Counted from the stretch's first letter, positions 52,311 through 56,480 are shown. The stretch: DNA of 64,000 nucleotides from Alphaproteobacteria bacterium (GCA_045111335.1 JBGUGE010000076.1:85945-149944), one strand, 5' to 3'. Translations and numbers: made by a program. Notes: a model not told the origin generated them from the letters alone.

Positions 52311-55300
52311 ATGTTGAGAATAGTACGGAACATCAAAAATATATTATTCTTAGCAGCTCTCCTTCTGCCGTGGCGCGGCTACGCGGCGGAAATCACCGCT
52401 ATTGACTTTAACGGTAATATCATCGGTCAGGTTATTTCAACCGGTATGGTTATCAATCCGGACGGAGATAATATCGGTACGATTACGGCGGACAGTTTGA
52501 TTATAAATTCCGGCGGTACGATAATCGGCGGTGTGGTGCCGCAAGGTATTGTCATCGGGTTGGATAACCGGTTGCTCGGAAAAATTTATGCCGACGGCGT
52601 GGTACGCAGTTTGAGCGGCAAAACCCTCGGTAAGGCTTTGCCTAACGGTTTGGTTATTGACGATATGTCAAACATTATCGGTGCGATTTTATATCCGGGC
52701 ATTATTTATTCGCCAAACGGCGAGGCAATCGGTCGGCTAACCGGCGGCGGCGAATATACCAAGTTGGAAGGCCAGCATATAGGCTTTGTTTCGGCCAACG
52801 GTTATGCTTATCGCAAATCGGGCGAAGATTATGTCTTAGACGGCAAGTTGATGTCATCTAAAATGGTGGTTTCGGTTGCAGGCAAGTTTTTAGGCAGTAT
52901 TGCTCCTACCGGACAGATTATTGATTTTGAAGGCAAGGCCATCGGCAAAATTCATGCCAACGGCTATGCCTATGACGCACAGGATAAGGTAATCGGCAGC
53001 ATTATTTCCACCAGTTACGCTTTTTCGCAGGCCGGCAGTTATATGGGTATTGTTGGATATAACGGCGAAGTTAAATCCGGCGAAAAAGTTGTGGCCAGAT
53101 ATCGCGCCGACGGCAACTTGGTGCGCGATACGGGGGATGTTGTCGGTTTTGCGGTCGAAATATCGGCCACTGCCAATGATAATTATGGAAAATATTTAGG
53201 ATATATCGTGCCGGACGGCAATATCGTTCACGGCGGTAAAGTTGTCGGCCATGTCGGCGCTAAAGGTTATGTTTATAACGATAAAGGCAATAAAATCGGT
53301 GAATTGGTTAAAACCGGTCCGATTTTCGACAGCTTGGCGCGCCTTAAAGGTCAAAGTATGAAAAACGGTCGAGTGATTTCTTTAGGCGGCGGCAATATCG
53401 GTCAGATGTCCGGTTCTTGGGCTTATGATGCCAACGGTACGCTTTTGGGCGGTACCGTAAATGATATGATTGCCCTTGACGGCAGCAAGTTTATCGGAAT
53501 CTCCAATATAGATGCGGGAATCACCGAAGGGGCAACCAATGCACGCATTTCACCGTTTGGCTATGTAATCGGTGCGGACGGCAAAATTATGGGTTCCGGC
53601 TATGCGTTGTCGGCGGTATACGGTTCGGACGGAGTGTTATATTCGTATATTGACCCGAACGGTGGGTTGTATCGACCGACAAGCAACAATTTCCTGAGCG
53701 GTTCGGGTATTGTTTATGACGACCGGAATTTTATCGGTGAAGTCTTAAATCCGCGCTATGCGTTGGATTATAACGGCAAGCCGCTCGGCAAATTTGCCAA
53801 CAGTAACCTGATTTTGAACAATAAGAATGAGGTAGCTTATAAGGTTATTCCGGGCGGGTATGTTGTAGAAACCAAAGATAAATTATCTCCGATGACAACG
53901 CCGATTAAAGGTTTTGGCGGCAATAAGATCGTGGCTTTGAACACCGGTGGCGATTTAATCGGTTATGCCGACAGCGAAGGGCGCGTTATCGGCACTAACG
54001 GCGAAGTGGTCGGTCAGGTTTTGTATAACGAATATGTGGCCGATAACAATAAGATTGTGAACGGTAAATTGGTGCCGTTTGCCACGGTGGTTAATGATAA
54101 ATGCGCAATTATCGGTATGGTTGACGGCAAAGGCGATGTGATTGACCATCACGACGTTATCAGCGGCCATATTTTGCCGAACGGACAGGCGATTTCCGAT
54201 GTCGGTAACTATATCGGTTACACGGTTGAGCAACATGGTTTAATTGATTATAACGGCAACTTCAGCGGCACGGTCAGCGGCGCTACGGGTAGAGATTTAA
54301 GCGGCAAAATCATCGGTTGTGTCAACCGTCAGGGTATAATTATCGATGAAGAACATCATCAGCGCTACGGCGTTATTTTGCCGGAACCGGTAATGGATTT
54401 TGAAAATCAGTTATTCGGCCACGTTTTAGCCAATGGTAAGGTCGTCAATGTTGAAGATAAAACAATCGGTTATATGCAGCCGAACGGCAACGTTGTTTCC
54501 TCCTCCAAAAGAACTTTGGGTAATGTAATGCGCTATAAAGTGGCATATTCCGACTCCAATGAGTTCTTGGGAATGGTTGACAGTGCCGGTTTGGTTAAAA
54601 ATACCAGAGGTAAAATTGTCGGTAAAGTTAACTTCGACGGTAGTGTTGAAAATAACGGCGATAATATCGGTTATGCCCTGTATGACTTTTATGTTTATGA
54701 TGAAAACTTTATCGTTTACGGCTATTTAACCAAAGACGGCACAGTGTTAAGCATGGTCGGAAGCCGGTTAGGCAAACTTGACAGAGGCTTTGTTATTGAC
54801 CGCAGAGGTGATGTGGTAGCCCGCGGCAACCGTGATTATTGGGTCAGAGACGTAAGTCATAATGTAGTCGGTGAGTTACAGATGAGCGGAACGGTCGTCA
54901 GCACGGAAGGTGTAAATATCGGTTATTTGAAGGATGGCGGAGTGATTCATGATGCCGATGAAAATGAAATTGCCGTCGCAACCCGCTATCAATATTATGT
55001 TCCGTCACATGTTGAGACAGTACAGCCGCAAAAACCGGTAACCCCGAGGATAAACGATTATGAGGAGCCGGAAGAAGAAACCGATGTATCAACCTCGGAA
55101 CCGCGCAAACGACACAGAACCAAATACGGCGAACAAAATCTCGGTATTGCCATCAGTCCGGAGGGCGATTATCTCGGCTACATCGATTTGGATGGAAACG
55201 TTATCAATAATCAGGGTGAAGTTATCGGCTATACGCAGCCTGACGGTACGGTGGTGGATATAAACTATAACCCGATAGGTATGGTTGCCGATAAAGCGGC

Positions 55301-56480
55301 GCCTCCGACACAAATGTTTGTTCCGGCCGGTGCCTATGAAAACAAAGAGAAACCGCAGGTCGGTCCGGACGGAGGTCATGGTCCGGGAGGTCGTTATGAT
55401 CCGCAGCGCGCGGCCGTATTGCAAGGAATGCAAAGGATTCGTCGTGCCAATATTGCTGTCGGCGAACTGAAGAGCATCGGCAAATATAATCCGTCTACCT
55501 TTACCGGATATGAAGAAGATGGTTGGGACGGCGGCCCTTCAGGCAACCAGATATCTTCGTGGCGTGTTGATATGAGTGAGATGATTTTGGAGGATAAGGG
55601 TATTCCGGCCGTTATGGCACGCTCGGTTTATGCATCGGATGGTATGGGCGAAAATATTCCGCTTACGGCAATTGTTGAACGCAACGTATTTGCCGAAGAA
55701 GGTCGCAACATAATTATTCCGGCCGGTTCGCGTGTTATCGGTAGTTTGGACACTGATGTAAGCGATGTCGGCGGTGAAAGCGGCGGTGCGGTTAAAATTA
55801 ACATTACGTGGCGTCGTCTCATTCGTCCGGATGGTTCTCAATGGCGGTTTAATGCACAAACGGCCGACGCACAGGGACGTGCCGGTGCTATCGGCTATCT
55901 TGATGAACAATTGCTGAAACGCTATACTTTCCCGCTTGTTTCAACTACATTACAGGGATTGGTTAATATTGCTTTGGCTGAGGGTGACGGTTCAACATCT
56001 ACCACCAATGCCAACGGTACTACCACCACTCAGGATGCGCGCAGTGCCGCGGCTGAAGATGCTCGTAAACAGGTCAATAGCCGTATCAGCCAAATCATCA
56101 GCGAAATTATGAAAAAGAAAGAAGCTATTAAATCGGTTACATATATTCCGGCCGGTACGCGCATTATTATTTATCCGAATCAGGATTTGTGGCTGAACAG
56201 CGTTAAACGCGATAAAAACCGCGGAATGGGGGACGGTATGGATGATGAAGAAAAAGCCAAAGTCTTCTCTGACGGCTCTTCGGACGGAGATGAAGACGGC
56301 TCTGCCGAAGTTACCTATGACGGCAGTCAGGGTAATGTACAGCCGGCAACACCTCCGGGAACGGGGCCGCAACCGCAGCCGCAGCCGATTACCTATCAAC
56401 CGCAACCGCAGCCGACACAACAACCGGCTCCGTCGATTGATAGCGGAACCTCCGGCAGTAACGTACCGGAGCTATTGTAG
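52311..56480 (+). CDS. virB10: Giant VirB10/TrbI-family protein (1389 aa) with an N-terminal ~860-aa repeat region and Pro-rich linkers
   Basis: AGGAGG RBS. N-terminal signal/anchor (ILFLAALLLPWRGYAA). Degenerate G-x-[IV]-I-G repeats to ~54985 and again at 55138-55300. Pro-rich segments. The TrbI-type C-terminal domain (IPAVMARSVYASDGMGENIPLTAIVERNVFAEEGRNIIIPAGSRVIGS...INITWRRLIRPDGSQWRFNAQTADAQGRAGAIGYLDEQLLKRY). A PQ-rich tail. Confidence 0.85.
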   Translation: MLRIVRNIKNILFLAALLLPWRGYAAEITAIDFNGNIIGQVISTGMVINPDGDNIGTITADSLIINSGGTIIGGVVPQGIVIGLDNRLLGKIYADGVVRSLSGKTLGKALPNGLVIDDMSNIIGAILYPGIIYSPNGEAIGRLTGGGEYTKLEGQHIGFVSANGYAYRKSGEDYVLDGKLMSSKMVVSVAGKFLGSIAPTGQIIDFEGKAIGKIHANGYAYDAQDKVIGSIISTSYAFSQAGSYMGIVGYNGEVKSGEKVVARYRADGNLVRDTGDVVGFAVEISATANDNYGKYLGYIVPDGNIVHGGKVVGHVGAKGYVYNDKGNKIGELVKTGPIFDSLARLKGQSMKNGRVISLGGGNIGQMSGSWAYDANGTLLGGTVNDMIALDGSKFIGISNIDAGITEGATNARISPFGYVIGADGKIMGSGYALSAVYGSDGVLYSYIDPNGGLYRPTSNNFLSGSGIVYDDRNFIGEVLNPRYALDYNGKPLGKFANSNLILNNKNEVAYKVIPGGYVVETKDKLSPMTTPIKGFGGNKIVALNTGGDLIGYADSEGRVIGTNGEVVGQVLYNEYVADNNKIVNGKLVPFATVVNDKCAIIGMVDGKGDVIDHHDVISGHILPNGQAISDVGNYIGYTVEQHGLIDYNGNFSGTVSGATGRDLSGKIIGCVNRQGIIIDEEHHQRYGVILPEPVMDFENQLFGHVLANGKVVNVEDKTIGYMQPNGNVVSSSKRTLGNVMRYKVAYSDSNEFLGMVDSAGLVKNTRGKIVGKVNFDGSVENNGDNIGYALYDFYVYDENFIVYGYLTKDGTVLSMVGSRLGKLDRGFVIDRRGDVVARGNRDYWVRDVSHNVVGELQMSGTVVSTEGVNIGYLKDGGVIHDADENEIAVATRYQYYVPSHVETVQPQKPVTPRINDYEEPEEETDVSTSEPRKRHRTKYGEQNLGIAISPEGDYLGYIDLDGNVINNQGEVIGYTQPDGTVVDINYNPIGMVADKAAPPTQMFVPAGAYENKEKPQVGPDGGHGPGGRYDPQRAAVLQGMQRIRRANIAVGELKSIGKYNPSTFTGYEEDGWDGGPSGNQISSWRVDMSEMILEDKGIPAVMARSVYASDGMGENIPLTAIVERNVFAEEGRNIIIPAGSRVIGSLDTDVSDVGGESGGAVKINITWRRLIRPDGSQWRFNAQTADAQGRAGAIGYLDEQLLKRYTFPLVSTTLQGLVNIALAEGDGSTSTTNANGTTTTQDARSAAAEDARKQVNSRISQIISEIMKKKEAIKSVTYIPAGTRIIIYPNQDLWLNSVKRDKNRGMGDGMDDEEKAKVFSDGSSDGDEDGSAEVTYDGSQGNVQPATPPGTGPQPQPQPITYQPQPQPTQQPAPSIDSGTSGSNVPELL

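Follow-up and report, generated by a model that had tools for sequence, protein, structure and literature searches.

The window analyzed here, a 64,000-nucleotide stretch of DNA from Alphaproteobacteria bacterium (GCA_045111335.1, JBGUGE010000076.1:85945-149944), contains an uninterrupted plus-strand open reading frame (ORF) at positions 52311-56480 that encodes a VirB10 protein of 1389 amino acids (aa). We consider it probable, at roughly 65%, that this ORF codes for the outer-membrane half of a VirB10 divided between two genes, that the preceding ORF at 48073-52308, which encodes an upstream repeat protein (RP), codes for the inner-membrane half, and that the β-hairpin arrays carried by both proteins serve as a scaffold. 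Both genes would belong to a chromosomal secretion system of the VirB type in an uncultured alphaproteobacterium from gut or rumen. RP and VirB10 are most likely the products of a fissioned giant VirB10, because the N-terminal modules of RP map one-to-one onto those of single-chain VirB10s whose genes occupy the same slot between virB9 and virB11.

The 1389-aa protein is a bona fide VirB10, because it combines a Pfam match to TrbI, the VirB10 fold including its two-helix antenna and a gene position between virB9 and virB11. The initial annotation of the window had called it a giant VirB10 and had proposed that its C-terminal domain be delimited with the TrbI profile, and the profile agrees: PF03743 matches aa 1092-1295 with E 2.4e-30 (106 bits, cut-off 35). 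An AlphaFold2 model of aa 901-1389, computed from a 77-sequence alignment, has a disordered segment at aa 901-939, a barrel that begins at aa 1098, two antenna helices (aa 1200-1223 and 1243-1271) with a Thr/Gly-rich loop between them, and a disordered tail at aa 1310-1389. Foldseek matched this model to R388 TrwE (7o3j_A; E 3e-11, TMt 0.64), Xanthomonas VirB10 (6gyb_C; TMt 0.67), CagY (6x6k; TMt 0.66), ComB10 and pKM101 TraF (3jqo), each with a probability of 1.00, and also to an entry for the Dot/Icm dome (9ngw_A; TMt 0.65). Judged from the predicted structure, the C-terminal portion of the protein is an outer-membrane domain of the standard VirB10 kind. Canonical VirB10 assembles with VirB9 and VirB7 into an approximately 14-fold outer-membrane core complex, and the antenna projection of its barrel forms the outer-membrane pore.

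For the remainder of the chain, the layout given in the initial annotation is right to within a few residues (Table 1). The repeat array that it had placed at 52.4-54.98 kb occupies positions 52386-55001, and the further repeat units that it had placed at 55.14-55.30 kb, after a first linker, correspond to three hairpins at 55143-55289, a segment (segment 10 of our division) that matches Bflower_2 with E 1.7e-12. The acidic linker between the array and these hairpins is variable across the family (10% identity, 28% gaps). In the Pro/Gly-rich linker directly before the barrel, the motif G-ERYDP-RA is nearly invariant and a helix at aa 1031-1047 is conserved.

The array itself is made of hairpins of the β-flower type. 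β-Flowers are shallow barrels of 4, 5 or 6 β-hairpin petals with a [DNEQ]xxG motif at the tips (PMC10584680); the families PF21784, PF21785 and PF21786, placed in clan CL0395, were defined from AlphaFold models (Durairaj et al., 2023; PMC10584680), and the proteins so far described carry single domains of about 96 residues to which no function has been assigned (PMC10584680). In the 1389-aa VirB10, Bflower_2 (PF21785) matches in seven stretches with E 4.7e-46 (155.7 bits, cut-off 38) and Bflower (PF21784) with E 1.4e-10 (41.9 bits, cut-off 25), and a DUF3659 match also lies upstream of TrbI. When Pfam was scanned segment by segment, the β-flower signal was found to be distributed along the array. 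The initial annotation was thus right about the extent of the repeats, for which we obtain approximately 870 residues; their motif is not a new one and is that of PF21785/PF21784 plus DUF3659.

The structure prediction that had been suggested for this region returned an all-β fold. AlphaFold2 was run on aa 26-900 with 60 sequences, and the result, read through its secondary structure and confidence values, had a mean predicted local distance difference test score (pLDDT) of 92.5 and a predicted template modeling score (pTM) of 0.91, with about 98 short strands of 3-6 residues, which amount to about 49 hairpins, and a few three-residue helical turns, none of them reaching four residues. A pTM of 0.91 over 875 residues implies that the modeled array is a single confidently packed body and not a series of beads on a string. 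Short antiparallel hairpins with the [DNEQ]xxG tip motif are present, with a period of about 17 aa. The hairpins were counted from the model because the VirB10 array is too diverged for its units to be counted by sequence; a 17-aa hidden Markov model (HMM) built from the regular repeats of RP found only eight positive-scoring units in VirB10. The best local Foldseek matches of the array were Rhs, Tc-toxin and teneurin shells (E 1e-25 to 1e-30, with global TM scores of 0.07-0.11); fiber proteins were matched only locally as well, and no global analogue was found in PDB or BFVD (TM at most 0.11). The root mean square deviation (rmsd) was about 30 Å against compact Rhs shells and 60-85 Å against fibers, a pattern that hints, weakly and indirectly, at a compact body. 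In an alignment of 120 orthologue clusters, aa 27-897 of VirB10 have zero gaps at any reference position, and identity to the reference in successive 30-aa blocks of the array is 35-73%. Because the array is both gapless and conserved to this degree in every block, each hairpin has a conserved identity of its own. The first ~200 aa of the mature protein are among the best-conserved parts of VirB10.

The N-terminus of VirB10 had been annotated as a signal/anchor sequence, a reading that our results replace with a predicted cleavable signal peptide. No 19-residue window in the first 25 residues reaches a hydropathy typical of transmembrane segments. Among 125 orthologues, the pre-sequence is variable in sequence and in length (median 27 aa) and contains about three Lys/Arg residues ahead of an uncharged stretch (median length 12 residues); 98% of the orthologues have A or S at position -1, and 97% have A, V, S, G or T at position -3. 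Strict conservation starts at +1/+2, from where the motif [AQN]EITAIDFNG is almost invariant. By sequence rules, such a pattern marks a substrate of signal peptidase I and predicts a Sec signal peptide, with cleavage in the window protein after GYA, just before AEITAIDFNG; the predicted semi-tryptic N-terminal peptide of mature VirB10 would begin AEITAIDFNGNIIGQ. Mature VirB10 would therefore have neither a cytoplasmic tail nor a membrane anchor, because its N-terminus would be cleaved off as a signal peptide.

A tail and an anchor of the VirB10 type are found instead on RP. The first 38 residues of this protein comprise a basic cytoplasmic tail and one strong transmembrane segment (hydropathy 3.28), and they are followed at aa ~80-200 by an Ig-like domain of the ASH/HYDIN type, with a weak Pfam match to ASH (E 0.007). 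RP also matches Bflower_2 (E 2e-76) and, weakly, RHS_repeat (E 2e-8). An HMM built from RP matches VirB10 and the converse also holds (E 1e-49 to 1e-109); none of the other ORFs of the window was matched by either. The upstream protein had initially been described as a stand-alone paralogue that shares the repeats of VirB10; the sharing stands, but the VirB10-type tail, transmembrane segment and Ig-like domain make RP more than a paralogue. Its regular hairpin units (for example VDANGNIIGKVLPDGTV) are 17 aa long, and those of VirB10 are much more diverged. In a 28-sequence alignment, RP orthologues range from 1155 to 1581 aa; copy number varies at aa ~520-680 (positions 49630-50110), with 52-68% gaps at aa 521-680, whereas the VirB10 array is without such variation. 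The most conserved parts of RP are the Ig-like domain, the first repeats and the C-terminal region. The last ~210 aa are conserved in a position-specific manner and end in LPEVARNRRN, the final 11 residues being 89% identical; this C-terminal module scores 240-357 bits in the corresponding upstream genes of contigs L006, L009 and L010, as compared with 15-70 bits for generic repeats.

The two genes adjoin closely. The Shine-Dalgarno sequence AGGAGG of the VirB10 gene lies inside the last codons of RP (AAT AGG AGG AAT TAA, where it encodes Arg-Arg), 8 nucleotides before the ATG at 52311, and the RP stop codon TAA is at 52306-52308. Read from the sequence, this junction fits two translationally coupled cistrons.

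Neither protein is peculiar to the window. A search with the full ORF covered 5.8 billion proteins, with orthologues counted as clusters at 90% identity, and full-length relatives, 34-73% identical, were recovered in more than 120 clusters; every one of them has both β-flower and TrbI regions. The survey of VirB10 lengths that the initial annotation had recommended gave 1382-1441 aa in 110 of 120 clusters. The relatives come from metagenome-assembled genomes (MAGs) of rumen and gut labeled 'Alphaproteobacteria bacterium', and the β-flower VirB10 is thus a large family in MAGs of uncultured Alphaproteobacteria and not a one-off. Three species-level genomes (the rumen MAGs RUG13901 and RGIG6619, plus MAG-R073; loci L001-L003) have the order VirB8, VirB9, a repeat protein of 1411-1523 aa, a VirB10 of 1395-1400 aa and VirB11; the same order was found in three further contigs (L006, L009 and L010). 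Overall, VirB9-RP-VirB10-VirB11 is the order in all seven split loci, which are from independent assemblies.

The origin of the split is illuminated by a second, exhaustive HMMER search with the TrbI region against 1.84 billion representatives, whose closest hits were sorted into three groups. Members of the first are 1,400-1,900 aa long and have a signal peptide followed by EITAIDF, those of the second are single chains of 1,930-2,406 aa that begin with M..SSSEQY[IV]KKSNR and then a transmembrane segment, like RP, and the third, more distant group is made up of VirB10s of 500-630 aa without repeats. Another search, with the TrbI region alone, yielded only proteins of up to 596 aa, which look like short forms, but many of them are fragments. 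An apparent second split in L006, into 932 and 448 aa, proved to be a run of N, that is, a scaffold gap in the acidic linker (L006 9800-10000), and many of the 240-600-aa 'VirB10' database entries closest to the window TrbI domain are fragments from such gaps.

Stand-alone proteins forming about 40 clusters were retrieved in a search with RP, as were 80 or more single-chain giants with lengths of 1,900-2,433 aa (for example MBP5533925.1, 2331 aa, and MBQ8251282.1, 2213 aa), whose TrbI domain is 38-46% identical to that of the window VirB10 in the phmmer listing. Residue 1 of RP aligns with residue 1 of TrbI-ending proteins of 2,085-2,406 aa, and the C-terminal parts of these proteins align with VirB10. 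In the giants, the HMM of RP aa 1-45 matches only at aa ~1-45, that of RP aa 80-200 only at aa ~74-197, and the TrbI HMM only at the C-termini; repeat segments match everywhere. The single-chain loci L004, L005 and L008 have the order VirB8-VirB9-giant-VirB11 with no separate repeat gene. The Ig-like module of RP is also present at the same position (aa ~60-220) in repeat-less VirB10 relatives of 520-630 aa (P0287 with E 5e-10; P0308; P0305), and in two of these it passes the Pfam cut-off for HYDIN/VesB-like Ig domains. A further repeat-less protein, P0090 (516 aa), has the tail, transmembrane, Ig-like and TrbI modules; its VirB10-VirB11-VirD4 islet (L007 6001-10989) directly follows secE-nusG on a 1.87-Mb contig, an arrangement that we take to be reminiscent of the scattered rvh islets of Rickettsiales, which likewise belong to a type IV secretion system (T4SS).

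In a neighbor-joining tree of TrbI domains with 50 bootstraps, the split forms are monophyletic (100%), and repeat-bearing forms are separated from repeat-less ones (100%). The most parsimonious order of events would be a short VirB10, then insertion of repeats, then fission, because in the repeat-less outgroup a single chain already bears the tail, the transmembrane segment and the Ig-like domain. The ancestral VirB10 would have consisted of a cytoplasmic tail, a transmembrane segment, the Ig-like domain, a linker and the TrbI domain. A β-flower array could then have been gained between the Ig-like and TrbI domains, giving rise to single chains of 1,900-2,430 aa, and in one clade the gene would have split within this array, with the 3' half acquiring a ribosome-binding site, a start codon and a Sec signal peptide of its own.

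In the resulting machine, RP would be held in the inner membrane by its anchor and would extend about 1,370 residues into the periplasm, and mature VirB10 (aa 26-1389) would be exported by Sec, its TrbI barrel and antenna building the outer-membrane channel together with VirB9. Two stretches that rank with the best conserved of their respective proteins, the C-terminal ~210 aa of RP and the N-terminal ~200 aa of mature VirB10, are candidates for the interface at which the halves could re-join non-covalently; docking of these two modules would restore an envelope-spanning unit. The rigid hairpin arrays, multimerized around the channel, could form an enlarged periplasmic scaffold that plays the part of the extra subunits and enlarged VirB homologues of the Cag and Dot/Icm machines. 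We would go further only tentatively, at somewhat less than even odds, to a naturally split, envelope-spanning and energy-sensing VirB10 that docks through β-flower modules, the array of about 2,000 residues per pair making a giant periplasmic ring or sheath of a kind not seen before.

Several points weigh against this account of a divided VirB10. Cleavage of the signal peptide is a prediction by sequence rules, and the docking of the RP C-terminal module onto the VirB10 N-terminus is deduced indirectly, from sequence conservation. Whether the split clade is nested within the giants or sister to them has weak support in the TrbI tree (12-62%), and a secondary fusion in the single-chain clade would be a less parsimonious alternative to fission. 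A search for the fission point, in which segment HMMs were mapped onto the giants, failed because repeat segments cross-match everywhere (at 30-100 bits) and only the unique modules map uniquely; by this approach, neither the fission point nor any position-specific orthology between the repeats and those of the giants could be located. The array may, moreover, take the shape of discrete 5-fold flowers, of a rod or of a compact body. Finally, no VirB6 (TrbL) or VirD4 gene was recognized in the window.

The evidence also bears on other explanations. RP could be an independent bitopic periplasmic accessory similar to DotF, in which case VirB10 would simply have lost its anchor to become an outer-membrane-only protein, and nothing would be reconstituted. 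The two proteins are indeed encoded by separate cistrons, each with its own targeting signal, and in the Dot/Icm system DotG interacts with an inner-membrane partner, DotF (PMC6761968). We nevertheless regard this as unlikely, since the unique N-terminal modules of RP are those of single-chain and repeat-less VirB10s, the single-chain loci have no extra gene in the RP slot, and RP is paired with VirB10 in 7/7 loci and retains its conserved C-terminal module. A function of the arrays in binding a ligand, either peptidoglycan or membrane lipids, so that they tether or space the machine within the envelope, seems somewhat less probable still. The clan of the β-flowers, CL0395, also contains the Tubby domain, which binds lipids (Durairaj et al., 2023; PMC10584680), and the neighboring VirB9 has a weak match to the peptidoglycan-binding SPOR domain; against this, no binding site or ligand can be inferred from sequence or model, and the pTM obtained over 875 residues suggests one rigid body instead of independent binding modules. 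Such binding is in any case compatible with a divided VirB10 and not exclusive of it.

We find it quite improbable that the repeats are exposed at the cell surface for contact with host or target cells or for antigenic variation, as has been proposed for regions of CagY and DotG. The conceptual parallel with those proteins (PMC6761968; PMC9371333) and the varying copy number of the regular 17-aa repeats in RP would be in keeping with such a role, but the VirB10 array is gapless and conserved block by block, its DNA repeats (60-88% identical) are too diverged for frequent recombination, it lies N-terminal to the outer-membrane domain, which is the periplasmic side in every solved VirB10, and the part that does vary sits on the protein anchored in the inner membrane. 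The initial annotation had itself raised the concern that the long ORF might be an artefact of repeat assembly; together with errors of gene calling, or the fusion of two genes by a sequencing error, we consider this next to impossible. Nothing was found in its favor beyond the fact that some database relatives are broken by scaffold gaps, as in L006. The 51-nucleotide period is clearest in the upstream gene (48.8-50.3 kb), and because the repeats have diverged to 60-88% identity at the DNA level, collapse or expansion of the array by an assembler is not expected; the full-length ORF also recurs in more than 120 orthologue clusters, and gene order is kept across the seven assemblies.

The window protein shares with the canonical VirB10s (A. 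tumefaciens VirB10, pKM101 TraF, R388 TrwE and Xanthomonas VirB10) the C-terminal TrbI barrel with its antenna, the Pro/Gly-rich linker before the barrel and the order virB8-virB9-virB10-virB11. Those proteins have a tail and a single transmembrane segment on the same chain and are without the ~870 extra residues of β-hairpin repeats. The window VirB10 departs from this topology in that the anchor is carried by a different chain: it begins with a predicted signal peptide, and the tail and transmembrane segment are on RP. The single-chain giants agree with RP in their tail, transmembrane and Ig-like modules, and they also have the same repeat families, TrbI and the same virB9-virB11 slot, but they are one polypeptide of 1,900-2,430 aa with no internal signal peptide, as opposed to 1411 plus 1389 aa here.

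The initial annotation had likened the protein, in concept, to H. pylori CagY and Legionella DotG/IcmE. Like the window VirB10, CagY has a VirB10 C-terminal domain after a very large repeat region, belongs to an expanded T4SS with an enlarged VirB9, and has a C-terminal domain that superposes on the one modeled here. Its repeats are α-helical modules (PMC9371333, citing Delahay 2008), and they are rearranged by intragenic recombination (PMC9371333; PMC6761968). CagY is also a single chain, whereas the array of the window VirB10 is all-β and fixed, with no gap at any reference position, and the whole is most likely divided between two genes. DotG resembles the window protein in having a TrbI C-terminus, a repeat-expanded middle and an inner-membrane bitopic partner, DotF; it contains pentapeptide repeats in variable number and is contacted by DotF (PMC6761968). 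DotG keeps its own membrane anchor, while the partner here is a homologue of the VirB10 N-terminus that shares the repeats, and for the window VirB10 no Pfam pentapeptide match was listed and the repeats recur about every 17 aa. The analogy with CagY and DotG therefore holds as a concept but not beyond it, the VirB10 array being gapless and strongly conserved, and the proposal of a third, independent enlargement of VirB10, with repeats unrelated to the α-helical ones of CagY or the pentapeptides of DotG, is borne out.

With respect to known folds, the window proteins resemble β-flowers in their matches above the Pfam cut-offs, the [DNEQ]xxG tips and the ~17 aa per hairpin. They differ in scale, with ~49 hairpins in VirB10 and more in RP; the arrays span 870-1,200 residues and are joined to modules of a T4SS. 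The Rhs/YD shells of T6SS (type VI secretion system) Rhs effectors, Tc toxin BC and teneurins are likewise strings of β-hairpins that give local Foldseek matches; the global TM scores and the rmsd given above set them apart, as does the context of a T4SS structural gene, and no Rhs core or toxin domain was detected, the C-terminus of the window VirB10 being TrbI. We found no paper on this family, or on a naturally split VirB10, in the literature searched.

Table 1. Features of the VirB10 gene and its immediate neighbors in the window
Feature	Position	Strand	Basis or remark
VirB9, 545 aa, CagX domain	46435..48072	+	Pfam; immediately upstream of RP
RP, upstream repeat protein, 1411 aa	48073..52308	+	Translation, Pfam, hydropathy
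Regular 17-aa (51-nucleotide) hairpin repeats of RP, aa ~222-760	48736..50352	+	Repeat period
Shine-Dalgarno sequence AGGAGG of the VirB10 gene	52297..52302	+	Read from sequence
Predicted Sec signal peptide of VirB10, aa 1-25	52311..52385	+	Sequence signature
β-Hairpin (β-flower type) array, aa 26-897	52386..55001	+	Pfam, AlphaFold2, orthologue alignment
Variable acidic, Pro-containing linker, aa 898-944	55002..55142	+	Predicted disordered, pLDDT ~40
Three further β-hairpins, aa 945-993, about half a flower, beside the TrbI region	55143..55289	+	pLDDT 86-96
Pro/Gly-rich linker directly before the barrel	55290..55583	+	G-ERYDP-RA motif, helix aa 1031-1047
TrbI/VirB10 C-terminal β-barrel domain, aa 1092-1295	55584..56195	+	Pfam, AlphaFold2, Foldseek
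Two-helix antenna, aa 1200-1223 and 1243-1271	55908..56123	+	AlphaFold2 helices
C-terminal tail, acidic then PQ-rich, aa 1310-1389	56238..56477	+	Predicted disordered, poorly conserved
VirB11 ATPase, 324 aa if it starts at ATG 56492	56492..57465	+	Pfam

The genes lie in a chromosomal virB-type cluster on the plus strand that comprises three VirB2-like pilins, VirB4, several secreted proteins without assigned function, a 1786-aa acidic secreted protein, two VirB8, VirB9, RP, VirB10 and VirB11 (Table 1). It is flanked by the housekeeping genes yidC, engB, tyrS and uvrA, and related MAGs share the flank with engB and yidC, which suggests vertical inheritance and not carriage on a mobile element. 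VirB9 is about twice the usual size, and its weak C-terminal SPOR match (aa 471-543; E 6e-4; 20.4 bits, cut-off 21) is found in combination with CagX on the VirB9 of L004 and L005 as well. On the other side, the longest VirB11 ORF (56242-57465, plus strand) overlaps the 3' end of VirB10 by 239 nucleotides; orthologues are 322-336 aa long, and translation most probably starts at ATG 56492, with GGAGGAAGG before it.

Further upstream on the plus strand, three tandem pilin-like ORFs (28972-29316, 29406-29750 and 29761-30141) each have a signal peptide and two hydrophobic segments; the second matches VirB2/TrbC above the Pfam cut-off, the third falls just below it, and the first was recognized by hydropathy only. 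VirB4 (30889-33318, plus strand; 809 aa) has a hydrophobic segment at aa ~9-37 and may be a VirB3-VirB4 fusion. Six consecutive plus-strand ORFs in 33401-39165 have N-terminal signal or anchor sequences and no family match; the one at 33401-33973 has a possible lipobox, FFGC, and may be a VirB7-like lipoprotein, and the one at 35352-36755 contains a Pro/Glu-rich, TonB-like stretch of low complexity. The ORF at 39181-44541 (plus strand) encodes a 1786-aa acidic secreted protein (Glu+Asp 19%) with no Pfam or NCBIfam match; the possibility that it is a giant VirB6 was rejected in view of its signal peptide, its acidic character and its non-polytopic sequence. In L009, a TrbL-like gene of more than 1092 aa lies nearby. 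The region 16991-28578, mostly on the minus strand, encodes a PilO-like accessory protein, a secretin, two T2SSE-family ATPases and unannotated large ORFs, and looks like a second envelope machine beside the T4SS, of the type IVb pilus or type II secretion system kind. Rfam found no RNA genes in the window.

In NCBI, the giants and the stand-alone repeat proteins are named 'hypothetical' or 'DUF3659 domain-containing' (MBP5533925.1, MBQ8251282.1 and MBR2137614.1), and because of these names, surveys of T4SSs in gut and rumen Alphaproteobacteria may miss VirB10 or assign it the wrong size. The members of this family are very large for VirB10 homologues: single chains reach up to about 2,430 aa, and the two proteins of a pair together amount to about 2,800 aa. 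They represent a third, independent design of an expanded T4SS core, in which β-hairpin arrays stand in place of α-helical or pentapeptide repeats, and they place the β-flower fold in a defined machine; if the division of VirB10 between two genes is as we propose, this would be the first functional context for an orphan fold. A VirB10 that is cut in two and conserved in that state also asks whether covalent continuity is needed for coupling, a question for which the uncut sister lineages offer a natural comparison.

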